Source: an uncultured Gammaproteobacteria bacterium
GTDB lineage: Bacteria > Patescibacteriota > Microgenomatia > UBA10105 > UBA927
NCBI GenBank assembly: GCA_964448085.1
Contig: CAYUUX010000003.1
Location: 5,865-69,864, forward strand
Direction of reading: 5' to 3'
DNA: 64,000 nucleotides
In this document: piece after piece, positions 1,036 through 64,000 of the stretch
Position numbering within the stretch: position 1 is the stretch's first letter
Layout of the letters: each line of letters begins with the position of its first letter
The notes under the pieces: model-generated
Database searches by the model: none
The model's input: the letters and a program-made list of their open reading frames with translations, nothing else
What the model was told of the DNA's origin: nothing
Made by a program: the position numbers and the translations under genes

Positions 1036-2016
1036 TTAATTTGCATCGGTGGCAGGTGAAGCACCTTCTTGCTTCACGGTATCTTTTTGGGTAAGCCGTA
1101 ACGTGGAAAGCATAGTATCGAATATGTCTTCGGTTGTCTGTTTTGTGAGTTTCATGTGGATGTTGAATCCATAATATCTATCATTCTCATGCAAATTGAC
1201 GAGAGCCCCCACATATCCTTCTCCCGGTGTCCCGAGAATCGGGAGGTACATTTGCTCGCCTCCATAATCTTGCCAGGTATTGATGCCATATATTTTGAGA
1301 TAGGTTACGCCATGAACATTTGTGTGTTCCGATACAACGGACGGAGGAAGATAAGTTTTGCTTACAGTGTGAATAAAGCGAGGATAATATTTTCCATCTT
1401 GAGTTACATATCCTGTGTGATCAGCAAATCCTCCTTCTCTTCCCGCGGAATAGTCTTTGGAAACACTGCCTATCGTAATGTCCCCGCCTCCGCATGCTCC
1501 ATATCCTGCAAAGACCGGTCGAATGAATGAGATGGACTGTATGAATGACTGACAATACTGTGTGCCCGTGTCTCCTGGCACTTCATTTCCGTTCGGTCGT
1601 TCCATCATGCCAAAATTGACAGGAAGTTTATATTCAATGCCAAGGACCGTATCTGTATAGAGTTTCCAGAGTGTTGTTGGATCAGCAGGTTGTGTTCCGG
1701 GGGGTGTGGAGTCGATATTTTGTTGAAGTGCTGATGAAACGAAAGTACGTTTTTGAACGTAGGAAAGCACACTTCGATAGAGAGGAGGATTCGTATGCCA
1801 TCCTGGGTTTGGACATACTTGTCCCATTTTACAAACCACTGCTTCGGTTTGGAAATAGGGGATGGGACAAAAGAGAACGAGGATAATCAAAAGAAATATG
1901 GCAGGGATACTAAACTTAGTATGGGATTTTTTTACAATGGGCGCTTGAGTTGGTTGCATGGATGCAGACGGTGGAAAATTTGGCGTTTGCGTTGGAGGTT
2001 GCGATGGTGATTCCAT
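1036..2016 (-). CDS. Hypothetical membrane-anchored extracellular protein with a Pro/Gln-rich N-terminal tail and one TM helix
   Basis: Low-complexity P/Q/T-rich N-terminus, then a basic patch and the hydrophobic helix IPAIFLLIILVLF. Shares the motif W(K/N)xYTDxxLG(I/F)xYxxP with the downstream ORF 2077..3231. Confidence 0.45.
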   Translation of the reverse strand: MESPSQPPTQTPNFPPSASMQPTQAPIVKKSHTKFSIPAIFLLIILVLFCPIPYFQTEAVVCKMGQVCPNPGWHTNPPLYRSVLSYVQKRTFVSSALQQNIDSTPPGTQPADPTTLWKLYTDTVLGIEYKLPVNFGMMERPNGNEVPGDTGTQYCQSFIQSISFIRPVFAGYGACGGGDITIGSVSKDYSAGREGGFADHTGYVTQDGKYYPRFIHTVSKTYLPPSVVSEHTNVHGVTYLKIYGINTWQDYGGEQMYLPILGTPGEGYVGALVNLHENDRYYGFNIHMKLTKQTTEDIFDTMLSTLRLTQKDTVKQEGASPATDAN

Positions 2017-2076
2017 AAATCAAAAATGTCTATCAATGCAAGAAACCGTGATGGTATCGGTGTCTATACCATTTTG

Positions 2077-3231
2077 TTACTGACAATCTTTTGGACAATT
2101 GCATGCATCTTCATATTGTGCGTCACATATGTTGTTCCCGCAAGGGCTACAGAGCGTGTGGGGAACACCCATTTGCTCTCTGCATATTTGAGAAAGATCC
2201 GGCGTTGACTGTTTGTCAGCTATTTTTGTAAGCCCAACGCAACAATCCATTGCTTTAATGGTAGGATTCGTTTTTCCTGTTGTCATATCAAAATTACTTA
2301 TCGCCCGTTCACCAGCACGAGCGCAGGAAGCTGGAGCCGACTCGGGAGCAGGAGAAGTATCAAAAAACTGTATCGTTGAAATGATTGAATCAAAACGATC
2401 AAACCAATCTTGGGCAAGTTGTGGTGCCTTTTGAGAAAAAAGGTCTTTGACAAAAACCTCTGGGGATTTCCAGATAAGAGCGTCACTGCAATTTTCTGTG
2501 TCCGTCGTAAAATATTGGGGCATCGCATCCGCATAGCTTCTCGGCGCAGTAAGCGTCAGAATAACTTGGTGATTATTTTTGAAAAAAATCAGTCCGCGGG
2601 TAAACCGCACATCACATACCTCAATTAACTGGAGAGAAAGATATGTTTTGCCGGAGAGAGACTGTATGGGAATCACGTTTTGCGAATTCGGATAGTTCGT
2701 GCCAAACGCTCGGGTGCCGTAATTTCCGTTTTCCAAAGCTTTTTTGTCTGCCAGAGCGGTTGTGAGATCAAATCCAAGAGGTTCGTCTTCATACTGAGCT
2801 AAGTCTTTGGTTCGTATATGTAAAACTACTGCGCGCGAGTTTTTGGTGTCCGCATTCAGCGTTATGTCATTGGGATATTGAATTTGGAACCCTAATTGTT
2901 CATCGGTATACGTATTCCAATCGGATGTAGCAGTTTCTTCTTTTTGCGTCTCTAACGTGGGTGTGGGAGCTTGTTGAATATTTGATATGTACATATTCTT
3001 TGACAAGAAGAAACCTCCAAAGAAGGTAGCGCATGGTACAAAAACACAAAGAAGTATGATAGATACTACGTTGCGCTTTGGTTTCCCAGTTGGTGAGGGA
3101 ATTTGAGATTCTGGTGGAATATCCTGTTTTGAAGAAGACGCTTGTTCTGGCTGTTGTAAGACGGGTTCTGGATACATATATGTAGGATAACATATTATTG
3201 TTTGATGTCGACAGCTCATTGTTAGAACCAT
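2077..3231 (-). CDS. Hypothetical membrane-anchored extracellular protein with a Cys-rich C-terminus; paralog-like to 1036..2016
   Basis: Pro-rich N-tail and the TM helix VVSIILLCVFVPCATFFGGFFL. Shared WNTYTDEQLGFQIQYP motif. C-terminal Cys cluster CSPCGNNICDAQYEDACNCPKDCQ. The real start may be the internal Met (MYPEP...). Confidence 0.45.
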   Translation of the reverse strand: MVLTMSCRHQTIICYPTYMYPEPVLQQPEQASSSKQDIPPESQIPSPTGKPKRNVVSIILLCVFVPCATFFGGFFLSKNMYISNIQQAPTPTLETQKEETATSDWNTYTDEQLGFQIQYPNDITLNADTKNSRAVVLHIRTKDLAQYEDEPLGFDLTTALADKKALENGNYGTRAFGTNYPNSQNVIPIQSLSGKTYLSLQLIEVCDVRFTRGLIFFKNNHQVILTLTAPRSYADAMPQYFTTDTENCSDALIWKSPEVFVKDLFSQKAPQLAQDWFDRFDSIISTIQFFDTSPAPESAPASCARAGERAISNFDMTTGKTNPTIKAMDCCVGLTKIADKQSTPDLSQICREQMGVPHTLCSPCGNNICDAQYEDACNCPKDCQ

Positions 3232-3237
3232 TGGAGT

Positions 3238-3798
3238 ATGAGCGATGGGGTATTGTTGAGATTATTTTCCAGAAGGAGGTATACTACGGGGAGTATGGAA
3301 AAAATAAAAACCACAGGAGCAGTGTCGACAAAAAAGGGCATAGCAGGAATTATCCTGCTTTTTATTATTCTATTCATCCTCCTTGGAGGCTTATTTGCAT
3401 TTGATTACGGATATATTGCGTATACGAAACAGACGCATATCTATCCCACCGCAACGCCTCCCCCCGGGGTGACGTACACGCCGATAACTGCGCGTGGGAG
3501 TTTTTCAAAAGATGCATACAGCGTGAACATAACACTCTATTTTGTTTCAGAGGGTGGTTCGGTGTCTGGGGATTTTTCTGGGGATTGCAGCGGAGTCATC
3601 ACGGGATATTATGACGGGAAAGACGGTGGAGTCATCAGCGGAAATGCATATGGAAGCTGTGATCCTCTTTTTGTCCCCATTCCGGCATCGGCGGAGTTCT
3701 CTGGTGTTGTACAGAAAAGCCAGAAGGCCATTCCCGTTACAGGAAAAGGATCTGCAATGGGGGTCTCCGGTGAGGGTTCGTTGACGTTTACTTTCTAG
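3238..3798 (+). CDS. Hypothetical single-pass membrane protein with a Gly/Ser-rich ectodomain
   Basis: Basic stretch, then the TM helix GIAGIILLFIILFILLGGLFAF. The likely true start is MEKIKTT near 3298. No recognisable domain. Confidence 0.35.
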   Translation: MSDGVLLRLFSRRRYTTGSMEKIKTTGAVSTKKGIAGIILLFIILFILLGGLFAFDYGYIAYTKQTHIYPTATPPPGVTYTPITARGSFSKDAYSVNITLYFVSEGGSVSGDFSGDCSGVITGYYDGKDGGVISGNAYGSCDPLFVPIPASAEFSGVVQKSQKAIPVTGKGSAMGVSGEGSLTFTF

Positions 3799-22655: not shown

Positions 22656-25004
22656 ATGCCAATAGAGACAACTGCCATTATCAGCAAACTTGAAACCTTC
22701 GGTATAAGCCTGTTTATGCTCATTCTGTTGGGTGCATTATGTCTTGGTGTTATCTATGCAATTTTTCTCCTATGGAAGTATCGGGGTCGTGAGGCACGAT
22801 CGCTTTCATATGTGTTACTGCAAATAGCCGTGCCCAGAGAAAATGAGATCAAAATCGATGCTGCGGAACAAATGTTTTCCAGTATTTACGGAATTTACAA
22901 TAATAAATGGTGGGCCTTTATCCAACCACAAGAACACATCTCTTTTGAGATTGTTGCCCGGAGGGAAGATATTCGGTTTTATGTGTCCGTTCCAAAGAAC
23001 ATCATGGATCTAGTGGAAAAACAGATCCATGGAGCATATCCCGGCGCAGATATCAAAGAAGTTGAAGAGCAGTCGATATTTTCGGAGAAAGGAAAGGTTG
23101 CATTTGCCGCTCTGCGTCTTCGGTATGGGAATCATTATCCGTTACGCACCTATCGGGATCTTCCAACTGACGCGCTGTCATCGATTACATCGGTTCTTGC
23201 CAAAATGCAGGAAGGTGAAGGAGCTGTCATCCAGGTATTAATACAACCAACAGGGGACAGATGGAAACGAACTGGCCGATCATATATAGCAAAGGTAAAA
23301 AAAGATGAGGCTAATCCAGAGAAGGCAAATTTTAAAGTGAATGCAAAATCGCTTGAAGCGATTGAACAAAAACTCCAGAAGCCCGGTTTTAATACGGTGA
23401 TCCGCTTGGTAGTGACTTCAGAAACAAAAGAACAGGCAAAAATTCACTTAAAAAATATCATAGCTTCATTTGGGCAATTTTCCTCAGATAATAATTCTTT
23501 CTGGGAAGTAAAATTTCCCATAAAACATTTATTCCTAACCGATTTTATCTATCGGTACTTTCCAATTTTCAATGTGCCCCTTCTTCGACAATTCAGCGTT
23601 TTGAATACCGATGAGTTGGCAAGCGTCTATCATTTGCCAAATAAGACCATTGAAACACCACATATTTTTTGGCTTAACGCGAAACGTGCACCGGCACCGC
23701 TGTTAATTCCGCAGTCAGGTCTTTATTTAGGTATGTCCAAATATCGAGGTGTGGAACGTCCAATATATGTAGGGGACGATGACAGAAGACGGCATATGTA
23801 TGTGATCGGTAAAACGGGAACCGGTAAATCACAACTTTTGGAAGAATTAGTGATGCAGGATATCAATTCGGGGAAAGGCGTTGCGGTGATTGATCCACAT
23901 GGAGATCTCATTTCAGGTATCTTAGCGAGAATGCCGGTTTCTCGTGCTGAAGATGTGATTTATTTCGATCCTTCGGACACGGAACGACCCATGGGATTGA
24001 ATATGCTGGAAGCAAAAACAGAAGAACAAAAACATTTCGTTGTCACTTCAATTGTCGGCCTTATGTACAAATTATACGATCCGATGAAAACCGGTATAAT
24101 CGGTCCGCGGTTTGAACATGCGATACGAAATGCCATGTTGACGGTTATGAGTGAACCCGGGAATACGTTCGTTGAGGTTGTCAGAGCATTGACGGATCAG
24201 TCGTTTGTGCAGGAGCTTCTGCCAAAAGTATCGGATCCTTTAATACGAAGGTACTGGACTGATCAGATAGCGCAAACCGCAGATTTTCATAAATCGGAAG
24301 TGCTTGATTATATTGTTTCAAAATTTGGGCGGTTTGTTACGAATAAGCTCATGCGCAACATTATAGGACAGTCATCTTCTTCGTTTGATTTTAGAAAGGT
24401 AATGGATGAGGGAAAAATATTACTGGTAAATCTTGCGAAAGGAAAATTGGGAGAAGAAAACAGTAATTTCCTCGGGCTTATTCTCGTACCGCGTATTTTG
24501 GTTGCGGCAATGAGCAGACAAGAAATTCCTGAAGCCGATAGACGAGATTTTTATCTCTATGTGGATGAATTTCAAAATTTTGCAACGCCAGATTTTGCGC
24601 AGATACTATCAGAGGCCAGAAAATATCGGTTGAATTTGATCGTTGCCAACCAATTTATTGGGCAGATGGAGGAGGAGGTTAAGAATGCTGTGTTTGGGAA
24701 CGTTGGAACCCTTGTCGCATTTCGTGTCGGAGTGACTGATGCCAATTATCTTCAGCACGAATTTCAGCCGACGTTCTCTGAATCCGATCTTATCAATATT
24801 GATAAATATAATGCCTATATTAAAACAATCGTTCATAACGAACCCGCGAAACCCTTTTCTATTGATTTGACGAAAAATATGAGACAAATAGAATCGGCGA
24901 GGAATCCGCAGATTGCAAATGCAATTATCCAGCTTTCCCGTTTAAAATATGGGCGTTCGAAGGAATTGGTTGAAGCAGAAGTGTCGGAACGCGCACGATT
25001 ATAA
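22656..25004 (+). CDS. Membrane-anchored HerA/FtsK/TraD-VirD4-superfamily P-loop ATPase (T4SS coupling-protein-like)
   Basis: N-terminal TM helix ISLFMLILLGALCLGVIYAIFLLW. Walker A GKTGTGKS. Walker B YLYVDEFQNF. ~780 aa. Confidence 0.5.
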   Translation: MPIETTAIISKLETFGISLFMLILLGALCLGVIYAIFLLWKYRGREARSLSYVLLQIAVPRENEIKIDAAEQMFSSIYGIYNNKWWAFIQPQEHISFEIVARREDIRFYVSVPKNIMDLVEKQIHGAYPGADIKEVEEQSIFSEKGKVAFAALRLRYGNHYPLRTYRDLPTDALSSITSVLAKMQEGEGAVIQVLIQPTGDRWKRTGRSYIAKVKKDEANPEKANFKVNAKSLEAIEQKLQKPGFNTVIRLVVTSETKEQAKIHLKNIIASFGQFSSDNNSFWEVKFPIKHLFLTDFIYRYFPIFNVPLLRQFSVLNTDELASVYHLPNKTIETPHIFWLNAKRAPAPLLIPQSGLYLGMSKYRGVERPIYVGDDDRRRHMYVIGKTGTGKSQLLEELVMQDINSGKGVAVIDPHGDLISGILARMPVSRAEDVIYFDPSDTERPMGLNMLEAKTEEQKHFVVTSIVGLMYKLYDPMKTGIIGPRFEHAIRNAMLTVMSEPGNTFVEVVRALTDQSFVQELLPKVSDPLIRRYWTDQIAQTADFHKSEVLDYIVSKFGRFVTNKLMRNIIGQSSSSFDFRKVMDEGKILLVNLAKGKLGEENSNFLGLILVPRILVAAMSRQEIPEADRRDFYLYVDEFQNFATPDFAQILSEARKYRLNLIVANQFIGQMEEEVKNAVFGNVGTLVAFRVGVTDANYLQHEFQPTFSESDLINIDKYNAYIKTIVHNEPAKPFSIDLTKNMRQIESARNPQIANAIIQLSRLKYGRSKELVEAEVSERARL

Positions 25005-25064
25005 AATTCCCCCTTTACTTTACGTCCAATTACGATACACTTTTAAAATATTAGCGAATTATTT

Positions 25065-26471
25065 ATGGATCAATCAGAGGAGCCGCTTAATCCCACAATT
25101 CAAAAACGCCACGAAAAAGTCGTTTATATCTTTAATCTTTCCGAGGACGTATGGCCGTTTATTAAGGCGATGTCTGATACGCACGAACGGCAATTTGAAA
25201 TAGATTGGAACGCGAATCTTGCTGAGCGCGACCTGCTTTCCATTGCGGAAGAAAACGAAGCGATTTTTATTTCTCCCCGACCAATACGACAGTCATTCCT
25301 TACGTACCATGAACAGGTGTTTGGCGCAAAACACATAAAAATACTGGTACCAAAAACACACACGGGGGAAATATGTGAAGACATTATTAACGATAACGAA
25401 GTAATGGATGAGTTGGTAGCTGCGGCAAATTCGGTAAAAAAATTAACACTGCTTAGCTATTCAACAAGCCCGCAATTTTTCCATCTCGTTGAAGTTCTGC
25501 AAAAAAAAGATATTTCCGTATATACGCCCGAATCCCCAGAGGTATCCAGCGCTTGGACGGTAAATTTTTTCGGGAGCAAATCCGGCATACGGCAATTGGC
25601 ACAAAAAAGCGGAGCAATCGAGCCCGATTTTAAAATCGCTGACGGTCTTATCTGTTCATCAATTTACGACGCCGCCATGATAGCCGCAAACAAGTTTGTA
25701 AAAGAAGACGGCGTGGTCATTAAAACGAACAAAGGGCACTCAGGTGCGGGAGTATTATTGTTCCGTTCCGGAGATCTTCCGAAGGAATATAAATCATGCG
25801 AACAAGCAATACATAAGATTTTAAAAAAAGACAGTTATTGGGAAAAGTTTCCCATTGTTATCGAAGATCTTCTCAATGTAAATTCCGCGATAGGCGGTGG
25901 ATTCCCGAATGTGGAATTTAAAATAACCAAGAGTGGAAAAATAGAATTTTTGTATTATTGCGCAATGCGGGTTGATCGGGATGGAATATATAAAGGACAA
26001 GAGATGCATGAATCCGTGCTTCCTGACCGCATTGCGGCTCGAGTGATTGATACTGGGTATTTCATCGGCGAACAATATGCAGCCGCGGGGTATCGTGGGT
26101 ACTTCGATGTCGATTTTGTCGCGGCAAAAAATGGAGAGATTTATGTGACAGAGTCAAACGCACGACGCACGGGCGGAACACATATGTATAAGACCGCGGA
26201 GAATCTTATTGGAAAAGAATTTATGACAGATTCGTATACCTTATCGAATAACGATTACGCGCTCCCGAAAGGAAAAAAACCTTCGTTTTCAGAAATAATT
26301 ACCGTATTGCAACCGGTTTTGTTTGACAAGAAAACAAAGGAGGGGGTTGTTCTGGCTTCATCGAATTTATTGGAACAAAGTAAATTCGCATATATAGTCT
26401 TCGGAAAGAACGAAAAGCGGTCTTTGGAATTAGAGGGGGAAATGGAGCAACTGCTTACTACACTTCAGTAA
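25065..26471 (+). CDS. ATP-grasp family enzyme with a ~200-aa N-terminal extension
   Basis: VVIKTNKGHSGAGVLLF (Lys plus Gly-rich loop) and the C-terminal YVTESNARRTGGTH (E-x-N-x-R) typical of ATP-grasp ligases. Confidence 0.5.
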   Translation: MDQSEEPLNPTIQKRHEKVVYIFNLSEDVWPFIKAMSDTHERQFEIDWNANLAERDLLSIAEENEAIFISPRPIRQSFLTYHEQVFGAKHIKILVPKTHTGEICEDIINDNEVMDELVAAANSVKKLTLLSYSTSPQFFHLVEVLQKKDISVYTPESPEVSSAWTVNFFGSKSGIRQLAQKSGAIEPDFKIADGLICSSIYDAAMIAANKFVKEDGVVIKTNKGHSGAGVLLFRSGDLPKEYKSCEQAIHKILKKDSYWEKFPIVIEDLLNVNSAIGGGFPNVEFKITKSGKIEFLYYCAMRVDRDGIYKGQEMHESVLPDRIAARVIDTGYFIGEQYAAAGYRGYFDVDFVAAKNGEIYVTESNARRTGGTHMYKTAENLIGKEFMTDSYTLSNNDYALPKGKKPSFSEIITVLQPVLFDKKTKEGVVLASSNLLEQSKFAYIVFGKNEKRSLELEGEMEQLLTTLQ

Positions 26472-52714: not shown

Positions 52715-53560
52715 CTATGGATTTGGGTCTATCAGGGGATAGTAAAGATTCTGACCACCAAAGCCTTCTTTGAATTTGGTAAAACCTTTCCACGCGGTAT
52801 ATTGTCGTGGTCTTCGTTCGTCCCAAACACCGACAAAATCAAATGTCCGGCAACGGTGTCTTCTGGCAAGTTTAATGGATTCCCATACGAGGAGTGTCGG
52901 CGCAAATAATTTTTTCCCTTTTTGCGTAGCCCCCGCTATCCAATAGTAGCAACAGGTATTCCATGTTAGAAGAAGCACCCCTCCAACGACGTTCCCCGTT
53001 TTTTCTTTAGCCAGTAATATGTACGCTTTCTTTTTGGGAGAAAAGATATTCCATAATTTATCTATTCCGTATGTCGTGATGCCTCCAAATAACCCGGCAG
53101 ACGAATTTTTAACCGCGATAAGTTCGTGAATAGCATTTGTTTCCTTTACCGTCAGACCGTTTTTTTGTGCTTTACGAACTGCACGTCTTTTGGCAGACGT
53201 GCATGCGTTAAATAGGTCTAATTCCTGTCTCTTGAGGTTGATGCGGATCGTTTTCGTTGGAAGAAAAGGGGAGCGCATAATTCTAAAAGATTGTGCAAGA
53301 GTGTGTATCCACGCATTGAACGCCGCTTCATCTTCAGTTGCTTTTGGCTCGATACTGACTTGTCGAACGTGGAGGGAATGAAGATGTGCAACTAAATCTG
53401 GAATGTCCGGTAATTTTTCCGGGCGTTGAATTTTCGCCAGCACGCCAAGGAAGGGGATCCTTTTTGAAAATACCGTTATCCCTTGGACTGTTGATACTCC
53501 CCACCGAAGGGAAGTTATGTACTGCTGATATAGTGGGGATTGTTGCAGTTCCATAGTCAT
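52715..53560 (-). CDS. FemAB-family peptidyl/aminoacyl transferase (peptidoglycan interpeptide bridge formation)
   Basis: C-terminal AWKGFTKFKEGFGG (the FemAB FKxgFg motif) and GNAT-like dimensions. Confidence 0.55.
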   Translation of the reverse strand: MTMELQQSPLYQQYITSLRWGVSTVQGITVFSKRIPFLGVLAKIQRPEKLPDIPDLVAHLHSLHVRQVSIEPKATEDEAAFNAWIHTLAQSFRIMRSPFLPTKTIRINLKRQELDLFNACTSAKRRAVRKAQKNGLTVKETNAIHELIAVKNSSAGLFGGITTYGIDKLWNIFSPKKKAYILLAKEKTGNVVGGVLLLTWNTCCYYWIAGATQKGKKLFAPTLLVWESIKLARRHRCRTFDFVGVWDERRPRQYTAWKGFTKFKEGFGGQNLYYPLIDPNP

Positions 53561-53586
53561 TCTATTCGACTCGTTGAAGCATCGTG

Positions 53587-54597
53587 TTATTTGCTAAGTT
53601 TTAGTATCATCCAGCGAACGGTGTCAATTGCGCAGTAGATGGTATATAAGGAAGGTTTCAAAACGAGGTCATAAGAACCGACAAATTCCACGAGCTCTGG
53701 AGCATAGCCGACTTTAAAACGATGAAAACCGTACCAAGGATCCTTGGGATCTGGATTTGGTCCCATTGCACCCCATAAGTCAAATTTTTGTACGTTATGG
53801 TTTTTTCCCCATTTCATCAATTCCCACAACAATACGTTTGGCGCCATCGTTTCCTTGTGAAGGCGTGAAGATGCTCCGTAGGGATAATACATTATCCCGT
53901 CATAAACAAAAATAATCCACGCAGCGAGAACTTCGTGATCGTATGATGCCGTCCAAAGATGTGCGATGCCTGCGTCACGCATGATACGCCACATGGTTCT
54001 ATGGTACGTGCTGTTGTGGGCATAAAACTTTTGCCGTGCAGTCGTTTCTTCTTCTAACCGTAAATACTGTGAAAAAGCTGCATCGCTATTGTCTTCCGTA
54101 ACTTGAACTCCGTGTTTTTGTGCAACCCTGATGTTATACCGAGTTTTTGAATGCATGGCTCGAAGCAATTGTTCCTCTGTTTTAGTGAGATCAATAACGA
54201 AGGTATATCTTGTAAAGAGTGGATGATGTGATGGTTTGAGATGGATATCGTGAGGGATGTGCCTTTTTTTATCAACCAGGATATTGGGTTCAATTTGGAT
54301 GAAAATTGCTTGTTGGTTGTGACCGACGTTTCGTAATTCTTCAAGCGTTTTTTTTGTGAGAACGTTTCCTTTTGGGAAATACCCAATTGTATATGGTGTA
54401 TGCGGTATTCGATGAAATGATACATACCCGTTTGATGTCTTTTCAATCGTGACTCCCATGGATTGTCTAAAATTTGCCCAGGCCTCTGTTTGAATAGGGT
54501 GTATGGGGGCGCTCGGTGTGTTTTTTTTGGATGTCATAGGCATATTATCGCGTTTTTCTCCATGTGTTACAATAGAAGTGGTATGAAAAGACGTCAA
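53587..54597 (-). CDS. FemAB-family transferase (second paralog)
   Basis: YGFHRFKVGYAPE C-terminal motif. ~330 aa, like FemX/FemA. Confidence 0.55.
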   Translation of the reverse strand: MTSFHTTSIVTHGEKRDNMPMTSKKNTPSAPIHPIQTEAWANFRQSMGVTIEKTSNGYVSFHRIPHTPYTIGYFPKGNVLTKKTLEELRNVGHNQQAIFIQIEPNILVDKKRHIPHDIHLKPSHHPLFTRYTFVIDLTKTEEQLLRAMHSKTRYNIRVAQKHGVQVTEDNSDAAFSQYLRLEEETTARQKFYAHNSTYHRTMWRIMRDAGIAHLWTASYDHEVLAAWIIFVYDGIMYYPYGASSRLHKETMAPNVLLWELMKWGKNHNVQKFDLWGAMGPNPDPKDPWYGFHRFKVGYAPELVEFVGSYDLVLKPSLYTIYCAIDTVRWMILKLSK

Positions 54598-56679: not shown

Positions 56680-57327
56680 ATGCCGAAGCGCTTTTTGATA
56701 GGAAACTGGAAGAGTAACATGACTCTTTCTGAGATGAATGAATGGTTTGAGGTGTTTATACCAACACCTGGTATTACCACAGTGCTATGTCTTCCGTTTA
56801 CATTGTTGTCATCAGCAAAAGAGCTTATACAAAAGAAAAACCTTCCAATTGCAATTGGGGCGCAGGATGTATCACCTTTTGGAAAAGGTCCATATACAGG
56901 AGAAGTAACTGCGGACATGATAAAAGAATTCGCTTCGTACGTATTAGTGGGGCATTCAGAAAGAAGACAATATTTTCAGGAGTCCCTTGAGGAACTTTCC
57001 TATGAAACATTGCAGGCAAAAACGGCAGGGTTAACAGTAATCTATTGTGTTGCCGATGAAGAGGAACACATACCAAAGGAAGCCGATATGGTTGCTTTTG
57101 AACCAATCGGATCCATAGGCACGGGGAATCCGGAAAAACCAGAAATTATACAGGCAAAATGCGAAATATTCAGGAAAACTTCAGGAAAAACGATATTATA
57201 TGGAGGTAGTATTACAGAGGAGATCGTTCGGGATATTCTTAAAACAGAAGCGGTAGATGGATTGCTTGTGGGTCAGGCAAGTTTGGATCCAGTGCAATTT
57301 ACTTTAATTGGTAAACAACTTTCATGA
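56680..57327 (+). CDS. tpiA: Triosephosphate isomerase
   Basis: FLIGNWKSN, VGHSERR and GGS...GLLVGQASL motifs. Confidence 0.85.
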   Translation: MPKRFLIGNWKSNMTLSEMNEWFEVFIPTPGITTVLCLPFTLLSSAKELIQKKNLPIAIGAQDVSPFGKGPYTGEVTADMIKEFASYVLVGHSERRQYFQESLEELSYETLQAKTAGLTVIYCVADEEEHIPKEADMVAFEPIGSIGTGNPEKPEIIQAKCEIFRKTSGKTILYGGSITEEIVRDILKTEAVDGLLVGQASLDPVQFTLIGKQLS

Positions 57328-58349
57328 GACACGTACGACGTTTGTTTTCACCACTAGCAGTCGGTATAGCGATAGCATGTATAGGTATTTTATGCGTGAG
57401 TATTCTTTATGTCGTTCGATTAAGCAAAGAATTTACCAAGGAAACGGGATTGAATAGGTCAATACTTATTAAACTATTAATAGATGGGGGATCCAACTTA
57501 AAATCAACTGACAATAAGACCAATATTGCGCTTCTTGGTATGGCGGGTGGTAGTCACGATGGACCAGACCTCACAGATACGATTGTAGTCGTATCATTTG
57601 ATATCAAGAAACAGACGCTTGCAATGATTTCTGTGCCTCGAGATATTTGGTCAGATTCACTCAAAGATAAGATAAACAGCGCATATCATTATGGTGAGGC
57701 AAAAAAAGAAGGTGGTGGTATCATTCTTTCCAGGGCAGTATTGGAGGATGTGGTTGGTTTCCCAATTCATTATGTGATGACGCTAGATTTTTCTCAATTT
57801 GAATCGGTTATCGATGCGTTAGGCGGCATAGATGTTAATGTAACAAAAGGATTTGTGGATAAAGAATTTCCAATTGCGGGTAAAGAAAACGATGAATGTG
57901 GAGGAGATCCGTTGTATGCATGCAGATATGAAACTGTAGCATTCACCCAGGGGAGCCAGCACATGGACGGTTCAACTGCATTAAAATATGTCAGAAGCAG
58001 AAATGCTGAAGGAGATGAGGGGACGGATTTTGCTCGAGGGAAAAGGCAGCAGGATATTATCATTGCGCTTAAAGACGCAATCATTGATGCGAAGATCTGG
58101 TTTCATCCTGCTCTGGCAAAAAAGCTGCTGGATATTATGGATAAAGCAACGGATACTGACATGACGCTTGGTGAACAGTTGACGATAGGGAAGTACGCAA
58201 TAAAAGTTAACTCTACCTCAATTCAAAAAATTTCCATAGAACCATTGCTTATAGTGCCACCCTCATGGGTGTATGGAAGATATGTGTTGGTTCCAGAAAA
58301 AGATTTTGCTTCTATTCACGCATTTATACAACAGGAAATGAACAAGTAA
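57324..58349 (+). CDS. LytR-CpsA-Psr (LCP) family cell-wall polymer phosphotransferase
   Basis: N-terminal TM, then LGMAGGSHDGPDLTDTIVVVS...ISVPRDIW. Translationally coupled to tpiA. Confidence 0.8.
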   Translation: MRHVRRLFSPLAVGIAIACIGILCVSILYVVRLSKEFTKETGLNRSILIKLLIDGGSNLKSTDNKTNIALLGMAGGSHDGPDLTDTIVVVSFDIKKQTLAMISVPRDIWSDSLKDKINSAYHYGEAKKEGGGIILSRAVLEDVVGFPIHYVMTLDFSQFESVIDALGGIDVNVTKGFVDKEFPIAGKENDECGGDPLYACRYETVAFTQGSQHMDGSTALKYVRSRNAEGDEGTDFARGKRQQDIIIALKDAIIDAKIWFHPALAKKLLDIMDKATDTDMTLGEQLTIGKYAIKVNSTSIQKISIEPLLIVPPSWVYGRYVLVPEKDFASIHAFIQQEMNK

Positions 58350-58405: not shown

Positions 58406-60310
58406 TTAAAGGACTAACCCGAGCATAAGCAAAACAACGCTTCCAACGACTGTTAATATTCCCAAAAATCCAGGGCCGATACCTGAGACTGGAACCTTTG
58501 GCGTTGGAATCCCAGTTGGAGTGGCTTCAGCAATCAATTGACTACTCGTTGGTGTCGGTGAGGATGCAGCAAAGGAACGTCGTGTTGGCGTGGGCGTTGA
58601 CGTTGCTCCAGGACAGGAACAATCAACTTCTGACGGACAGGCAGCTTTCCTACATCGTTTAACCCCAGTTGTTGTCACACACGATAAACCCGATTCACAG
58701 TTGTCGTCGCTGTCACAGGACGCGTCACAAGTTCCCGGTGCTGGTGTTGCTGTCGGACCACTCGTTGGGGTGTTGGTTGGTGTATTAGTCAACGTTCCAG
58801 TTGGTGTATTGGTTGGTGTATTAGTCAACGTTCCAGTTGGTGTATTGGTTGGCGTATCGCTAATTGTTCCCGTTGGTGTTTTTGTGGGGGTTTTTGTTGG
58901 TGTTTTTGTGGGGGTTTTTGTTGGTTGTTTTGGCGTTGCTGTTGGGCCACCCTGACAAGAACCACCACATTGAATAAGGGCATCACATCCTGTGACCGGC
59001 ATACAATAATTTCCAGATGTTCCAGTTATGGTATCGATTTGTCCGCACTCAGTAGGACTGAGTTTTCCGCTGTTGCATGGGCCAAATTCCCACCACACAC
59101 CAGGATCACCTTCTCCACAACCCTTCCCTACAGTTCCGCATCCGAGCGGACAATGGAAGAAGACACAATACCCATTAAATGTAGCTAAAGAACCAGTGCT
59201 TGAACCGATATGACAATCTTGTGGAAGGCCTGGCCCATTTGGATACCAATTTCGTATTCCAGGACATCCGGATATGCCGCTTGGTGTGGCTGTCGGAGGA
59301 GGTTTTGTCGGAGTGACACATGCTGCATAATTCAAAACACACTTTTGTCCCGAAGGACATGTATAAACAAACGTTGAAGGAGGATTACATACATAAGATG
59401 ATGCTACGCATTTTTTACCATTATCTGCACAACTGTTGCTTGCTGGCGTTGGCACTATGCATGTTGCATCGCTCGGCACGCACTTTCTCCCCGGGGCGCA
59501 ATGCCAATTATATGTCGTACTTGGAGTACAAGTTGCTTTTTCGTCCACACATTTATCGTCATGGTCAGCACAATCATCTAGTTTTTTAGTTGGTGTTGCG
59601 GTGGATTTTTGGGTTGGTGTTCTGGTTGCAGTAGGTGCTGTGATTTCATCCCATCTACAACAGTTTCTTCCTTCGTATGGTGCTATACAAGAAGCTTTAG
59701 TTGCGATAGTGGAACAAACAATGTCAGCACAAATCCCAGATCCTTGTGCTTGCTTACAAGATCCTGCAGCTCTGCTTCTGATTTCTGCAATTTGTGGAGA
59801 TCGAGCTATGTAGTAGAGTGCAAGAGGAAGTGTCAAAATTAAAAAGAGCACAATGGCAAGAAGTGGTCCAGCACCCTTAGTTTTTTTCTCTTTGGGTTTA
59901 TTATCGGGTGGAACTGTAGGTTTTTGAGCATCTTCCTTTGTTTCTTCTGGTTTTACGATTACAGAAGGATTGGATGGTTCTAACTCTGGAAGCGGTTCAA
60001 GAGCCGGAGGTTTCGGGAATGGAGGGGGCACATCTGTTGAGTTTGATAAAGTTGGTTGTTCCAAAACAGGCGGTGTAATTGGTTCAAGCGGCTTATCCTT
60101 ATTAGGAAGAGGTTTTTCATTTTTTTTTGATTCCTTTCCTTCTTCAACTGGCGTTGTTTGCATGAGAGGAGCTGGGGGAACGGGAATAACATCTGTTTTT
60201 TCCGCCTCAACTATTGGTTCTGATGGGGGTGTCGAACCCAATGCTTTTGCAGCATCATCAATCAATTTTTGTGGTGATATGGGTTCGTCTGCCATTGAAA
60301 CAAAAAACAA
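58406..60310 (-). CDS. Double-anchored Cys-rich Thr/Pro-repeat surface protein (paralog 1)
   Basis: Pro-rich N-tail, TM helix (LLAIVLFLILTLPLALYYIA), Cys-rich ectodomain, PTKT/TNTPTNTPTGTL repeats, and the conserved module CDASCDSDDNCESGLSC...RCRKAACPSEVDCSCP. C-terminus is VPVSG plus GPGFLGILTVVGSVVLLMLGLVL. Confidence 0.5.
   Translation of the reverse strand: MFFVSMADEPISPQKLIDDAAKALGSTPPSEPIVEAEKTDVIPVPPAPLMQTTPVEEGKESKKNEKPLPNKDKPLEPITPPVLEQPTLSNSTDVPPPFPKPPALEPLPELEPSNPSVIVKPEETKEDAQKPTVPPDNKPKEKKTKGAGPLLAIVLFLILTLPLALYYIARSPQIAEIRSRAAGSCKQAQGSGICADIVCSTIATKASCIAPYEGRNCCRWDEITAPTATRTPTQKSTATPTKKLDDCADHDDKCVDEKATCTPSTTYNWHCAPGRKCVPSDATCIVPTPASNSCADNGKKCVASSYVCNPPSTFVYTCPSGQKCVLNYAACVTPTKPPPTATPSGISGCPGIRNWYPNGPGLPQDCHIGSSTGSLATFNGYCVFFHCPLGCGTVGKGCGEGDPGVWWEFGPCNSGKLSPTECGQIDTITGTSGNYCMPVTGCDALIQCGGSCQGGPTATPKQPTKTPTKTPTKTPTKTPTGTISDTPTNTPTGTLTNTPTNTPTGTLTNTPTNTPTSGPTATPAPGTCDASCDSDDNCESGLSCVTTTGVKRCRKAACPSEVDCSCPGATSTPTPTRRSFAASSPTPTSSQLIAEATPTGIPTPKVPVSGIGPGFLGILTVVGSVVLLMLGLVL
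58775..58846. repeat. Perfect 36-bp x2 tandem repeat (with a partial third copy) inside a coding region
   Basis: ggttggtgtattagtcaacgttccagttggtgtatt duplicated head-to-tail. It encodes TNTPTNTPTGTL on the minus strand. Adjacent 12-bp PTKT-coding repeats run to ~58930. Confidence 0.8.
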
Positions 60311-60367
60311 TACAATACGTCCTATATCCAGCGTATCGCAATGGATGCAATATAGTCAAGGAAGAAC

Positions 60368-61378
60368 TTAAAGAAGAAGACCTAAGAGAAGGAGAACGAC
60401 ACTTCCTGCAACAGTTAATACGCCGGTTATGTTTAACCCTCCAGAGACAGGCATATCCTGTCCTGATGTATCCTCTGTATCTGATTGATCATCTGCAACG
60501 ACAGGACACGAACAGTCTGACTCAGCTGGACACTCAGCATTTCGACATCGGTTTACACCATTGACTGAAGAACAACTCAAACCGGATGTACAATCATCAT
60601 CGGTTTCGCAAGACGCATCACATTGAGCTGGGTCATTATTCGCTGCTCCTTGCGTTGGAGTTGCTGTAGGTTCACCCGTTGGTTCATCTGTTGGTGTTGC
60701 TGTGGGTTCACCCGTTGGTTCATCTGTTGGTGTTGCTGTGGGTTCACCCGTTGGGGTTTTTGTGGGTGTTTTTGTTGGGGTCTTTGTAGGATCTGTTTTT
60801 TTAGAATCTTCGCAAGCTTTTGCTCCGCAGCTAGCTTTAAAGCAGTAGTGTCCACAGCTATACGAATATATTCCGCAATCTTTTGGTGCTGTTACACATG
60901 CGTCACAATTTAACGTTGATACGGGCGTTTTATAATCACACCCATATATAGTATCGTCCTTTCCTCCAACAGGCTCTGGTTTTTCTGTTGGTGTTGCCGT
61001 TGGCACATTGGCATCAACCCAATTGCAACAAGATGCACCAGTTATAGTTCCTTTTTTTGACAAGCAAATTGTTTTGTCTGTAATACTCGGTCCGCATTGA
61101 CCAGTGCATCCATTTACGGTTTGATAATCGCCTGTGCCATTAAAATGGCAAGGATACTCTCCAGCAGCTTTACTTCGCTGCTCTGTTAATTGGCGTTGTT
61201 GAGAGATATAGAAAACAGCAACCGGAAGGGTAATGATTAAAAATACAACAATAAATAGAATTACCCATTTCCCGGCGCCTGATTTTTTCTTTATCGGTTG
61301 ACTAGAAGAGCTGCTTCCTTGTGTGGGAGCTGCGGCATCTGTTGGGGGAATGATGAATGTATCTGGGGTTGCAGCCAT
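60368..61378 (-). CDS. Double-anchored Cys-rich Thr/Pro-repeat surface protein (paralog 2)
   Basis: Same architecture as 58406..60310. Module CDASCETDDDCTSGLSC...RCRNAECPAESDCSCP. Repeat GEPTATPTDEPT x3. C-terminus is MPVSG plus GLNITGVLTVAGSVVLLLLGLLL. Confidence 0.5.
   Translation of the reverse strand: MAATPDTFIIPPTDAAAPTQGSSSSSQPIKKKSGAGKWVILFIVVFLIITLPVAVFYISQQRQLTEQRSKAAGEYPCHFNGTGDYQTVNGCTGQCGPSITDKTICLSKKGTITGASCCNWVDANVPTATPTEKPEPVGGKDDTIYGCDYKTPVSTLNCDACVTAPKDCGIYSYSCGHYCFKASCGAKACEDSKKTDPTKTPTKTPTKTPTGEPTATPTDEPTGEPTATPTDEPTGEPTATPTQGAANNDPAQCDASCETDDDCTSGLSCSSVNGVNRCRNAECPAESDCSCPVVADDQSDTEDTSGQDMPVSGGLNITGVLTVAGSVVLLLLGLLL
60669..60753. repeat. Perfect 36-bp tandem repeat, ~2.4 copies, in a coding region
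   Basis: ggttcacccgttggttcatctgttggtgttgctgtg repeated, followed by 12-bp PTKT-coding repeats to ~60790. Confidence 0.8.
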
Positions 61379-61424
61379 AATAGTGTTGTGTCTATTTAGT
61401 GTATCATGAAATGCGATTGGAATA

Positions 61425-62753
61425 TTATTTTATAAAAAATACCACACCTCCTCCCAAAAAGAGCGTGGTTCCCAAAATGAGAAGAATAAGCGTTGGAAGA
61501 AGTGATCCACTTGTCGGCATGGGTTCTGATGTATCCGTTGCTTCTTCTGTTGGTGTTGCGGAATCCGTTGCTTCTTCTGTTGGTGTTGGAGTTTCCGTTA
61601 ATTCTCCCGAAGGTGTTGCATCTCCCAATACTTGCGTGCCACTTTTAAGAACGGTAAATGTATGGGTGATTGCAACCGGTTTTTTCTTTGCATCAACAGT
61701 CGTCATGGTCACGGTTTGTTTGCCTGCCTGAAGGATTTTTGATGGGGTATACCGCCATAAACCGTCAGATCCGACTGTTGTCGTGCCAACGATAGGTGTG
61801 GCTGATCCTAATGTCACAGTTACTTTTTTTCCGGGAATGCCAATACCGCTGATGAGTGGTCGGTTACTCGTAAGTGTTGCACCTTCAGCTGGTTGGGTAA
61901 GCGTGATACTGCCAGATGTGGTTTTGGTAGTGGTTTGTGTTCCCAAAACGGAAGTATTTGATGTTTTACTGTTTTTTGGAACGACGGCAATATTGGATTT
62001 TGTCAGTTTTTTAGCATCCCTTCCGCGAAAATCATAAGTATTTCCGAGCGTTATATCAGGAACAGGAGCGTCATTGAGTGTGTCTGTTTGCACTTGCGAT
62101 TCCTGTATACCAAGTTTTACCGTAATGGATTCTGTCATGCGTTCGGAAACGGGGAGATAGGAACTTCCATCGTCAACGCGCGTTGCTCCTAAGGGGATTA
62201 TCCATGAACCGGAATTCCTCACGACTGCAGAAAGCAGTTGGCCGTCTGCCAGCCGAAGAAAAACAATCGCTCCTTCTGCGGGAGTTCCTCCTTCGGTAAA
62301 TACAGATCCGTATGCAGGATCAATACCGGGTGCCACTTCATCAATAGATGGGAATGTGACGACTTCATATGCTTTCGAATCGATGGGATACTTTTTTCCA
62401 TTGGATAAGATCGTGACTGTGTATTTTGTTGAAGGAATAAGTGTTTTTACGGTAACGCTGTGCGTGCGATACTTACCAAGTTTGCCTGTTGCATCCCGTT
62501 CGTCAAATGCAGAATATTTTTTTCCGTCTGCAGATTGTATCAGAAGTCCTCCTGAGGTTGGTTCTTCGGTTTCCCATACGAAAGAGAAAGATGATTCTGT
62601 GATATTCGTGACGGTTACCTGCTTGGGCTCAAGGGTAACAGATGCGCGTGTTTGTCCTCGAGCCATATATTCAAAAAGAAACGAAACCCCTGCAATTATG
62701 GCAATGACAAGCACTATGGCTAAAAGCGTTGGTATTTTTCGTGGTCCAAGCAT
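61425..62753 (-). CDS. Secreted surface protein with an N-terminal signal anchor and the same C-terminal sorting-signal-like tail
   Basis: N-terminal TM/signal sequence and a beta-rich ectodomain. The acidic T/P repeat TPTEEATDxx occurs x2 (30-bp DNA repeat at 61541..61600). C-terminus is MPTSG plus SLLPTLILLILGTTLFLGGGVVFFIK. Confidence 0.45.
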   Translation of the reverse strand: MLGPRKIPTLLAIVLVIAIIAGVSFLFEYMARGQTRASVTLEPKQVTVTNITESSFSFVWETEEPTSGGLLIQSADGKKYSAFDERDATGKLGKYRTHSVTVKTLIPSTKYTVTILSNGKKYPIDSKAYEVVTFPSIDEVAPGIDPAYGSVFTEGGTPAEGAIVFLRLADGQLLSAVVRNSGSWIIPLGATRVDDGSSYLPVSERMTESITVKLGIQESQVQTDTLNDAPVPDITLGNTYDFRGRDAKKLTKSNIAVVPKNSKTSNTSVLGTQTTTKTTSGSITLTQPAEGATLTSNRPLISGIGIPGKKVTVTLGSATPIVGTTTVGSDGLWRYTPSKILQAGKQTVTMTTVDAKKKPVAITHTFTVLKSGTQVLGDATPSGELTETPTPTEEATDSATPTEEATDTSEPMPTSGSLLPTLILLILGTTLFLGGGVVFFIK

Positions 62754-62761
62754 ACAAAACC

Positions 62762-62956
62762 TTAGAGCTTCACTTTCTTCTCTAATATATCCAGTGTACC
62801 AGTATCAAGCGAAGGTGTTAAGGGTGTGATGATCTGATTGACTTTTGTTTCCACGGTGGATGTCTTTGTGGTTTTTACCAATTCAAAAAAGATCCACGAC
62901 AATACAGTGACAAAGGTGAATAAAGTGATGAGAAATAAATCGCGATCTGTTTTCAT
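62762..62956 (-). CDS. Small single-TM protein in the pilus operon
   Basis: 64 aa with an N-terminal TM helix. Its stop overlaps the downstream start. Confidence 0.3.
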   Translation of the reverse strand: MKTDRDLFLITLFTFVTVLSWIFFELVKTTKTSTVETKVNQIITPLTPSLDTGTLDILEKKVKL

Positions 62957-63603
62957 AAGGTTTGATAATAAGTTAATACTTTCATGTTTAGCTGTATGAG
63001 CGGGGACGCAACAACCGTTTGTCCACTTTTGTTTGTTGAGAATGTCAGAGAATCGATTACAAAAACCCGACGCATGGAAATAAGATTGGTAAAGAAGGAT
63101 GAGAGCGTCTGGTATGTCCCCTCAATGGAAGCAGTTATGGAAAATTCTACGTTTTTAACAGCGAACGCCTTGCTTGATGCGCTTGCCGACGATTCAACAA
63201 TGACAGGGACAGCGCTTACCTGTATGGCGGAAATAGATGCTCCCGCTTGTGATGCAAGATCACGGATAACCCGAACAACATCGATTGCCTCAGGATTTTG
63301 CGGTATCGCGTCTGCAGCAAGCGGCAACTTAGTTTGCACATTTTCAAGAAGCGCTTGTGCCTGAATGAGGGCATTAATTTTGGTATCCATCTTTTCATTA
63401 ATTTCCTTCTTATCAATAATTTCCCGACGAAGATAGAGAATGGTTTGAATCGTTGGACGTATTGCGTACCAACCAAAAAGGGCTACGACAAGAAAAAAGA
63501 AAATAACAGTCGAATATGTCCGTGTCTTTGGTTTTGCCAGCATCGGTTCAAGCTGTTGATAGTACTTCTTATATTGGTTTGGTAGATTGAATTGAGAAGC
63601 CAT
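62953..63603 (-). CDS. pilO: Type IV pilus assembly protein PilO-like
   Basis: Short cytoplasmic N-terminus, one TM (VIFFFLVVALFGWYAI), a coiled-coil segment, and a C-terminal GTYQTLSSFFTNLISMRRVFVIDSLTF motif typical of PilO. Confidence 0.5.
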   Translation of the reverse strand: MASQFNLPNQYKKYYQQLEPMLAKPKTRTYSTVIFFFLVVALFGWYAIRPTIQTILYLRREIIDKKEINEKMDTKINALIQAQALLENVQTKLPLAADAIPQNPEAIDVVRVIRDLASQAGASISAIQVSAVPVIVESSASASSKAFAVKNVEFSITASIEGTYQTLSSFFTNLISMRRVFVIDSLTFSTNKSGQTVVASPLIQLNMKVLTYYQTL

Positions 63604-63604
63604 A

Positions 63605-64000
63605 TTATTTTTTTGTTTGCACGCCCGCTATTTGAGCGTTCATGGTATATTGAATACCTATTTTTGATGCTTTATCTACTGTACCGATTTCAATATTGCT
63701 CAATGACTTATTTGCGCTCGCGTTTAAAAGAAATTGAGAAAAGCTTTGGATGGTGAGTGATATGACTGATGCGGTAATTTTATTATTCGTTACTGTAAGC
63801 GATTGAAGGTATGTGCCGGAGGGCAACAGTGTGTGTACGCTTGTTAATGTTTGGGTGGGTACAGTCTGTTTATCAAGCAATGCCTTAATTTTCGCGAGCG
63901 CATCCTGTGTTTGGCGAAACGAAGTTTCCAGATCCTTATTCGCTTCGATGATTTCTTGTTTTTGGAGGATTTCATCGCGTAAATCCGTGAGTTGTCTATC
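63605..64000 (-). CDS. pilN: Type IV pilus assembly PilN-like protein, 5'-truncated by the window edge
   Basis: The reading frame stays open to position 64000 (…DRQLTDLRDEILQKQEII…coiled coil). The C-terminal LLPSGTYLQSLTV…ITASV is PilN-like. It lies immediately upstream of pilO. Confidence 0.45.
   Translation of the reverse strand, partial: DRQLTDLRDEILQKQEIIEANKDLETSFRQTQDALAKIKALLDKQTVPTQTLTSVHTLLPSGTYLQSLTVTNNKITASVISLTIQSFSQFLLNASANKSLSNIEIGTVDKASKIGIQYTMNAQIAGVQTKK

Follow-up and report, generated by a model that had tools for sequence, protein, structure and literature searches.

Three neighboring minus-strand genes near the end of a 64,000-nucleotide stretch of contig CAYUUX010000003.1 (the window) encode proteins that end in a pentapeptide followed by a hydrophobic helix. 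The proteins are designated A, B, and C, and their pentapeptides are MPTSG, MPVSG, and VPVSG, respectively. A preliminary description of the stretch had reported these open reading frames (ORFs) and C-termini, and both were found as described. The genes follow a PilN-like gene, a PilO-like gene, and a gene for a 64-amino-acid protein with a single transmembrane (TM) helix (p64). We hold it somewhat likely that these C-termini act as sortase-type cell-wall sorting signals (CWSS), in a divergent form characteristic of Candidatus Gottesmanbacteria, a group of the Microgenomates within the Candidate Phyla Radiation (CPR). Such a CWSS would probably be lineage-specific, relaxed at positions 1 and 4 of the pentapeptide, and would include a subclass without a charged tail.

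The proposed mechanism has four steps. The proteins would be exported by the Sec pathway by way of an N-terminal hydrophobic segment, and the C-terminal hydrophobic helix would retain them in the membrane. A sortase from another locus of the genome would then cut within [I/V/M]-P-x-[S/A/T]-G, ahead of the glycine, and would link the new C-terminus to the peptidoglycan cross-bridge. From the observations below we infer the cleavage, the responsible enzyme, and the attachment to the wall, as well as a function within or beside the type IV pilus alignment complex.

Occurrence and Conservation of the Signal

Within the window the signal is confined to the three proteins, as had been claimed. A scan of 590 stop-to-stop ORFs of at least 50 amino acids found the tail in A, B, and C only. 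The pattern [IVLMT]Px[STA]G, placed 20 to 33 residues from the C-terminus, occurs three times in the window against 0.36 expected from the background motif frequency. A fourth carrier, protein U, is located approximately 4.2 kb past the window end (L001 2107-3174). It is a cohesin/Big_13 protein that ends in MPVSG-STTPTLLLLIAAVISMFFGNILRRIAQ, the last residues being RRIAQ.

A scan of one genome per GTDB species gave 75 related loci. The same pattern at the same distance was seen 158 times in these loci, against 8.4 expected. The genes of these loci are arranged as rpsT - PilN - PilO - p64 - A[tail] - X - Y[tail] - LCP(-) - TIM(-) - UvrD. Protein X is 300 to 800 amino acids in length and usually tail-less, with a conserved cytoplasmic N-terminal peptide, a Pro-rich stretch, and a TM helix. 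Protein Y is 140 to 350 amino acids in length and bears the tail. In the sublineage of the window, B and C occupy the X and Y slots, and both are tailed.

The closest named relatives belong to Candidatus Gottesmanbacteria and other Microgenomates (CPR/Patescibacteria), and the informatively named records among the 75 loci are almost all Gottesmanbacteria. The signal is typical of Gottesmanbacteria and Microgenomates, in agreement with the earlier suggestion that it belongs to a lineage. Many GTDB-representative metagenome-assembled genome records with the cluster (L005, L009, L010, L012, and others) are titled "uncultured Gammaproteobacteria bacterium", which is evidently a placeholder or mislabel.

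Orthologs in the 75 species genomes supplied a pool of 278 distinct tails, sorted into three classes of 172, 60, and 46. The proline at position 2 is invariant in 278/278 tails. Glycine occupies position 5 except in 10 tails with A; position 4 is mostly S, T, or A, and position 1 is mostly M, I, V, or L.

A-type tails (172) have the form [MIVL]P[TVEQ][ST]G followed by x-x-LPT...G...GG and usually end in K or R; a K or R is present in the last eight residues of 128. Y-type tails (60), the class that includes B and C, have the form [IVMT]PV[AST]G followed by 22 to 24 residues ending in GL[AVIL][LF]. The Y helix is nearly fixed and Gly-rich, for example GPSVLGAS..AGG.LLLLLGLAF, and shows the pattern G-x-G-P...G-A....G-G.LLLLLGL. 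No Y-type tail contains K or R (0/60), and the statement that two of the three window proteins lack a basic tail is correct for B and C. The remaining tails (46), which include that of U, have the form [IMV]P[VI]SG, then the helix, often with K or R.

Protein A was compared with 120 orthologs at 44 to 64% identity and with one NCBI sequence that is 100% identical (P0105, on a 95,107-bp contig). The sequence xPx[STAGV]G plus 24 to 30 residues ends 103 of the 120 orthologs; MPEPG or xPxTA takes its position in the remainder. MPTSG is the most frequent form (27), followed by IPTSG (21) and VPTSG (21). In an alignment of 33 orthologs, P413 and P420 are invariant and G416 reaches at least 90% conservation; the PT-rich linker immediately before the motif is not conserved. 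Inside the C-terminal helix, G435 is invariant and G428 is at least 90% conserved. P310 and G313 of B are likewise invariant in an alignment of 14 sequences (27% mean column identity). The preliminary description had allowed that the tails would be ordinary TM anchors if the xPxSG residues varied among orthologs and the genome had no cognate transpeptidase. The proline is invariant and the glycine nearly so, and the objection fails on the first of these points.

The signal is also modular. One pentapeptide plus helix ends ectodomains that are unrelated to each other: fn3/Big_13 (A), cohesin/Big_13 (U), Cys-rich (B and C), and PKD-like (Y). A and U show a CWSS architecture, with a PT-rich or acidic linker, the pentapeptide, 24 to 30 hydrophobic residues, and a K/R end. 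After the pentapeptide, 26 hydrophobic residues follow in A, 23 in B, and 24 in C. An N-terminal hydrophobic segment is present in 140 of the 154 tail-bearing ORFs of the loci and in A, B, and C, where it is a predicted export signal.

A motif this short and loosely defined would favor coincidence, with three hydrophobic C-termini that happen to follow PxSG. Eight more instances of [IVLMT]Px[STA]G do occur elsewhere in window proteins, and the ORF at 3238-3798 has IPVTG 17 residues from its end without a hydrophobic tail. The enrichment in the window and in the 75 loci, together with the conservation of Pro and Gly across hundreds of tails, rules chance resemblance out, and we give it practically no credence. 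A profile search with 48 Y-type tails returned only five short proteins, none of them a known carrier, and is uninformative on the spread of the signal.

Relationship to Known Sorting Signals

An exhaustive HMMER search with the A profile gave 85 further full-length representatives (50% clustering) among the best 150 hits. The distant representatives carry VPTTG, PPKTG, VPRTG, IPKTA, or LPxSG, all of which keep xPx[ST][GA], and they include basic ends such as ...SYKRI, ...FLKRR, and ...KKQV. One distant A tail, checked individually, scores 18.6 bits on the NCBIfam model TIGR01167 (LPXTG_anchor) against a cut-off of 15.9. When 116 A-family tails were compared with NCBIfam, 12 matched LPXTG_anchor (E ≤ 0.1), seven sorting_LPXTATN, three Microco_LAVTG, and two EF0750_LPXTG, so that every one of the leading families is a sortase signal. 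Exosortase-type models gave single marginal hits on the same tails (PEFG-CTERM, 0.035; PExPT-CTERM, 0.061). A homolog of the Cys-rich module of B (P0064) carries a canonical LPKTG with a KKFKLV end. The window pentapeptides, with M or V at position 1 and S at position 4, fall within the range of variants seen in the orthologs that pass the model. Because the distant A tails grade into signals that pass LPXTG_anchor, the signal, judged by its sequence, sits at the edge of the sortase CWSS family, is evolutionarily continuous with it, and is missed by current models.

Several results weigh against a sortase-type signal. The window proteins and their isolated tails match no sorting-signal model, including TIGR01167 and PF00746, at E ≤ 10, and 47 of 48 Y-type tails have no LPXTG_anchor match (1/48 at E ≤ 1). 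The basic C-terminal end, which classical substrates need for membrane retention, is absent from B, C, and every Y-type tail, and the positively charged tail of A is a single terminal K. Ser or Ala stands in for Thr at the presumed scissile position. Sequence conservation within the hydrophobic segments is unusually high (LPT...G...GG in A, Gly-rich in Y), beyond what classical sortase recognition needs. The earlier proposal of a sortase-type signal stands in part: the tails are conserved and modular, and distant A tails score as LPXTG-type.

The sortase is also missing from the sequence searched. None was found in approximately 71 kb of readable contig sequence with Pfam, a TLxTC regular expression, and phmmer with S. 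aureus SrtA, six long window ORFs (427 to 757 amino acids) being covered by the regular expression and phmmer only. Pfam coverage came from the precomputed annotation of L001 and L003 and from a scan of 20 further ORFs in window regions 1-12.6 kb and 35-50 kb. Likewise, a strict regular expression and the single SrtA query found none in 1.28 Mb around the clusters of the 75 species, nor in any of the 78 loci covered. Because housekeeping sortases are often unlinked to their substrates, the missing enzyme is weak negative evidence.

The surroundings of the cluster offer a plausible acceptor. The precomputed Pfam annotation places two FemAB genes, MurJ, a LytR_cpsA_psr (LCP) gene, and a YkuD transpeptidase near the cluster. 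This context would agree with a wall of the Gram-positive type that contains interpeptide bridges, to which sortases usually attach their substrates; S. aureus is the precedent. An LCP enzyme of Actinomyces oris glycosylates a sortase substrate ahead of its anchoring. By analogy, the PT-rich linkers of the cluster proteins could be glycosylation sites.

The enzyme family itself is reportedly common in these bacteria. PF04203 sortases are reported in more than half of CPR genomes and as "near ubiquitous in Microgenomates", with 1903 proteins in 1020 CPR genomes and 12 non-CPR genomes counted in the supplement (Meheust et al. 2019, PMC6744442). A complete Microgenomates genome has also been reported with a sortase (PMC7143001). 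In the literature searched on sortase and LPXTG in CPR, Patescibacteria, and Microgenomates, neither this motif nor any substrate of a CPR sortase was found described.

Alternative Explanations

The tails could instead be permanent C-terminal TM anchors that are never cleaved. P-x-S-G would then be a hinge or helix cap, the Gly-rich helices would pack against each other or against PilN, PilO, or p64, and the proteins would stay tethered at both ends. The strong helix conservation (P420, G428, and G435 of A; the Gly pattern of Y), the lack of a basic retention tail in B, C, and Y, the invariant (I/L)PT that opens both TM helices of A, the lack of a sortase nearby, and the conservation of A at the level of the machinery would all suit such anchors. 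The distribution of the pentapeptide does not. The same pentapeptide at the same distance joins three different helix classes to unrelated ectodomains, which implies a common reader rather than an ordinary TM anchor with family-specific packing. Orthologous tails also grade into LPXTG_anchor-passing signals, and a PT-rich or acidic linker directly before the motif is the usual wall-spanning layout of sortase substrates. We therefore regard permanent anchors as unlikely.

A common reader need not be a sortase. The tails, above all those of the B/C/Y class, could form a new C-terminal sorting domain read by a different membrane enzyme, such as an exosortase or archaeosortase, a rhombosortase, a CPBP/myxosortase, or another. 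Tripartite signals with a conserved helix typically belong to intramembrane sorting enzymes and not to sortase, the Y class varies extremely little (60/60 without K or R; length 22 to 24), and no existing sorting-signal model matches it. This explanation is nonetheless rather improbable. The Arg/Lys cluster that is normal in PEP-CTERM, PGF-CTERM, and GlyGly-CTERM signals is absent here, the PGF sequence in one tail is unconserved, and the A and U tails, which resemble an ordinary CWSS, carry the same pentapeptide. No exosortase, archaeosortase (EpsH-family), or rhomboid Pfam domain was found in the annotated parts of the contig. An outer membrane is the usual setting of exosortase systems. CPR bacteria are reported to lack one (PMC6744442).

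The helix conservation and the missing basic end lend both explanations some weight; the enzyme of the second would read the helix together with the motif. A more far-reaching proposal, which we consider quite unlikely, is that the B/C/Y tail, given as [IV]PV[AS]G and a Gly-rich helix of 22 to 24 residues that ends exactly at GL[AVIL][LF], is a new sorting domain with its own processing or assembly partner and not a relaxed LPXTG signal. PilN-PilO-p64-A-X-Y would in that case be an undescribed wall-anchored type IV pilus envelope module of monoderm CPR bacteria, in which A links the PilN/PilO platform to peptidoglycan.

Protein A and the Pilus Genes

PilN and PilO both score above the Pfam gathering thresholds, and their synteny with A is kept in 73 to 75 of the 75 species, which bears out the link to PilN and PilO that had been proposed. 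Among the 75 loci, PilO is present in 75, PilN in 73, p64 in 69, and A in 73. Median identity across species is 43% for A, against 39% for PilN, 40% for PilO, and 53% for p64. B, C, X, and Y are far more variable than A, PilN, and PilO. Because A is as conserved as the machinery and syntenic with it, A is probably a core, wall-anchored structural partner of the PilN/PilO platform and not a variable adhesin. B and C (X and Y elsewhere) are probably the variable, surface-exposed members. The idea that these proteins are adhesins of an episymbiont suits A poorly, since a protein as conserved as PilN and PilO fits a core envelope component better than a fast-evolving adhesin.

Protein A is composed of a TM helix (amino acids 7-34), an fn3 domain (44-132), a second beta-sandwich (146-241), a disordered linker, a Big_13 domain (284-368), another disordered linker, and the tail. 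The AlphaFold model has a mean predicted local distance difference test (pLDDT) score of 77.8 and places the C-terminal helix at 418-441. A Foldseek search with this model matched only generic tandem Ig/FN3 adhesin-like chains. Database names of A orthologs are "hypothetical", "Ig-like domain-containing", and "fibronectin type III domain-containing".

Both TM helices of A open with a conserved (I/L)PT, I7-P8-T9 (62727-62735) in the first and L419-P420-T421 (61491-61499) in the second. P8, like P420, is invariant in the 33 aligned orthologs.

A near-identical Joint Genome Institute (JGI) metagenome contig, Ga0236239_1000022 (90,348 bp, sample 3300022302), aligns with the window without gaps at 99.5 to 99.96% identity; window position 1 corresponds to approximately 3308 on it. 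The TAA stop codon of A (61425-61427) is AAA in this contig, at 99.96% identity. Protein A ends in ...FFIK in the window and in the longer and more basic ...FFIKKYSNRIS in the JGI strain. This strain-level polymorphism falls precisely on the charged end of the signal.

The full PilN-like gene encodes 185 amino acids (L001 7217-7774) and starts approximately 162 nucleotides past the window end, with the N-terminus MPATKEVAINLFG. No pilM, pilB, pilC, or pilin gene is present in the cluster, and rpsT is directly upstream. The N-terminus of PilN keeps AINLFG, which we take to resemble the PilM-binding INLLP peptide, and for this reason a PilM gene likely exists at another locus. Compared with the class III signal peptide of type IV pilins (G|F/M-T-L-x-E), proteins A (MLGPRKIPTLLAIV...), B, and C lack Gly at -1 and Glu at +5 in their N-termini.

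Organization of the Cluster

The features of the cluster are listed in Table 1. The cluster genes overlap or are spaced by no more than approximately 70 nucleotides, in the order PilN, PilO, p64, A, B, and C, and converge on the LCP gene, a convergence seen in nearly all species. The LCP counterpart in most loci is a minus-strand ORF of approximately 342 amino acids after the cluster.

Table 1. Coordinates of the tails, the cluster genes, and neighboring genes in the window.
Feature	Position	Strand	Remarks
Tail of A	61428-61520	minus	...EPMPTSG (MPTSG 61506-61520), then SLLPTLILLILGTTLFLGGGVVFFIK
Tail of B	60371-60454	minus	...QDMPVSG (MPVSG 60440-60454), then GLNITGVLTVAGSVVLLLLGLLL; no basic residue
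Tail of C	58409-58495	minus	...PKVPVSG (VPVSG 58481-58495), then IGPGFLGILTVVGSVVLLMLGLVL; no basic residue
PilN-like gene, 3' part	63605-64000	minus	Pfam PilN, 29.5 bits (cut-off 22.8)
PilO-like gene, 216 aa	62953-63603	minus	Pfam PilO, 31.9 bits (cut-off 22); weak NCBIfam GspM match
p64, 64 aa, single TM	62762-62956	minus	4-nt overlap with PilO; no Pfam or NCBIfam family match
Protein A, 442 aa	61425-62753	minus	Pfam fn3 and Big_13; AlphaFold model
Protein B, 336 aa	60368-61378	minus	Pfam PT repeat
Protein C, 629 aa from ATG at 60295	58406-60295 (ORF 58406-60310)	minus	
LytR_cpsA_psr (LCP) gene	57324-58349	plus, convergent with cluster	Precomputed Pfam; context, not a proven part
Two FemAB-family genes (peptidoglycan interpeptide bridges)	52715-54597	minus	Precomputed Pfam; context only

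The ATG at 60295 is probably the real start of C, as the JGI gene call and homologs that begin with MADEP agree on it. Protein B has a short cytoplasmic N-terminus (approximately 40 amino acids), a TM helix, RSKAAG, a Cys-rich region, a PT-repeat linker, an 8-Cys mini-domain, and the tail. Protein C has a similar layout. Its cytoplasmic N-terminal stretch is approximately 150 amino acids in length and contains the peptide MADEPISPQKLIDDAAK and a Pro-rich region; a TM helix, RSRAAG, Cys-rich domains, PT repeats, an 8-Cys mini-domain, and the tail follow.

The 8-Cys mini-domain, C-x3-C-x5-C-x5-C...CR-x3-C-x5-C-x-C, is located directly upstream of the tail in B (60500-60625), in C (58615-58735), and in many Y proteins. 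Across 20 sequences, none of the eight Cys varies, nor does the Arg. The mini-domain was unmatched in Pfam and NCBIfam, where B and C have no family besides the PT repeat.

A conserved cytoplasmic peptide at the N-terminus, M[PA]D[DE]..(I/L)(L/I)D.A.K, precedes a long Pro-rich stretch and the TM helix in C (60250-60295) and in the X proteins of L008-L078. By analogy with the PilM-binding peptide of PilN, this could be a docking peptide for a cytoplasmic partner. The conserved sequence Q-x-[IL]-R-S-[KR]-A-A follows the N-terminal hydrophobic segment in B (amino acids ~60-75), in C (amino acids ~175-190), and in the cohesin/Big_13 protein U, whose family has the version QQ[DE][IL]RS[KR]AAPAT. 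This sequence resembles a c-region or cleavage site of a signal peptide typical of the lineage.

Other Features of the Window

GC skew is positive in 32 of 32 consecutive 2-kb windows (0.04 to 0.23) across 1-64000, regardless of gene orientation. An unusual strand compositional disparity has been reported for a complete Microgenomates genome (PMC7143001). The region 22656-26471 encodes a 782-amino-acid VirD4/TraG-like ATPase (DUF8128, DUF87, and TraG-D_C, with a faint T4SS-DNA_transf match) followed by a 468-amino-acid protein without a family. Two adjacent proteins of 326 and 384 amino acids at 1036-3231 match no family; both have a Pro/Gln-rich stretch at the N-terminus and a single TM helix, and the second ends in a Cys-rich region.

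Implications

A large part of bacterial diversity falls within the CPR/Patescibacteria, which live by cell-cell contact and whose surface proteins are almost all annotated as "hypothetical". With a signal defined as [I/V/M/L/P]-P-x-[S/T/A]-[G/A] plus a helix, in three or more tail classes, the wall-anchored surface proteins of Gottesmanbacteria and relatives could be predicted across whole genomes. The tails would supply peptide substrates for CPR sortase biochemistry, and the enzymes might have new specificity for sortase-mediated ligation. The conserved PilN/PilO-linked cluster is a candidate means by which these bacteria attach their type IV pilus platform to the wall.

Comparison with Known Systems

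PGF-CTERM and PEP-CTERM/VPDSG-CTERM signals share with the window tails a short motif and a TM helix at the extreme C-terminus. VPDSG resembles VPVSG on paper, and the tail of C contains PGF, which had been read as a hint of archaeosortase. This hint did not survive comparison. GPGF is present in C and a few orthologs only, and GPGI, GPSV, VPSV, or GPTV are found at this site elsewhere. Unlike these signals, the window tails have no Arg-rich end, and the host belongs to the CPR, where the outer membrane is reportedly absent. PGF-CTERM with archaeosortase was rejected on these grounds and for lack of a TIGR04126 hit and of an EpsH-family domain in the annotated genes. PEP-CTERM/VPDSG-CTERM with exosortase was rejected because no such model matches the window tails and no Arg cluster is present.

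A sortase-assembled Gram-positive pilus operon was considered on account of the three CWSS proteins in a row. It was set aside because the cluster has no class C sortase and the A model gave only generic Foldseek matches. The monoderm PilM/PilN/PilO alignment subcomplex is closer, with adjacent, co-directional PilN and PilO genes that overlap or abut the genes next to them. In contrast to that subcomplex, the cluster here has no pilM, pilB, pilC, or pilin gene and continues with p64 and sorting-signal proteins. No description of PilN/PilO with p64 and a sorting-signal protein was found in the literature searched.

Non-canonical sortase signals include IPQTG, VPDTG, and YPRTG of S. pneumoniae RrgB, RrgC, and RrgA, (S/P)PKTG of C. 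difficile, LAXTG of class E sortases, and LPNTA of B. anthracis SrtC; the NCBIfam models sorting_LPXTATN and Microco_LAVTG describe others. In these, position 1 and in part positions 4 and 5 vary with the sortase, and PPKTG, IPxTG, and xPxTA are also found among A orthologs. Thr at position 4 is kept in the known variants, whereas Ser, and Ala in the Y class, dominate here.

The classical LPXTG signal (TIGR01167, PF00746) differs from the tails at position 1, where M, I, or V (also P or T) replaces L, and at position 4, which is mostly S or A in place of T. The B/C/Y tails also lack the basic end, the helix is conserved in sequence, and the window tails fall below every model. The tails agree with it in Pro at position 2 and Gly (or Ala) at position 5, in the Pro/Thr-rich or acidic linker that precedes the motif, in the 22 to 30 hydrophobic residues at the C-terminus, and in the N-terminal export segment. 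A and U share the K/R end as well, and some orthologous tails score above the TIGR01167 cut-off.

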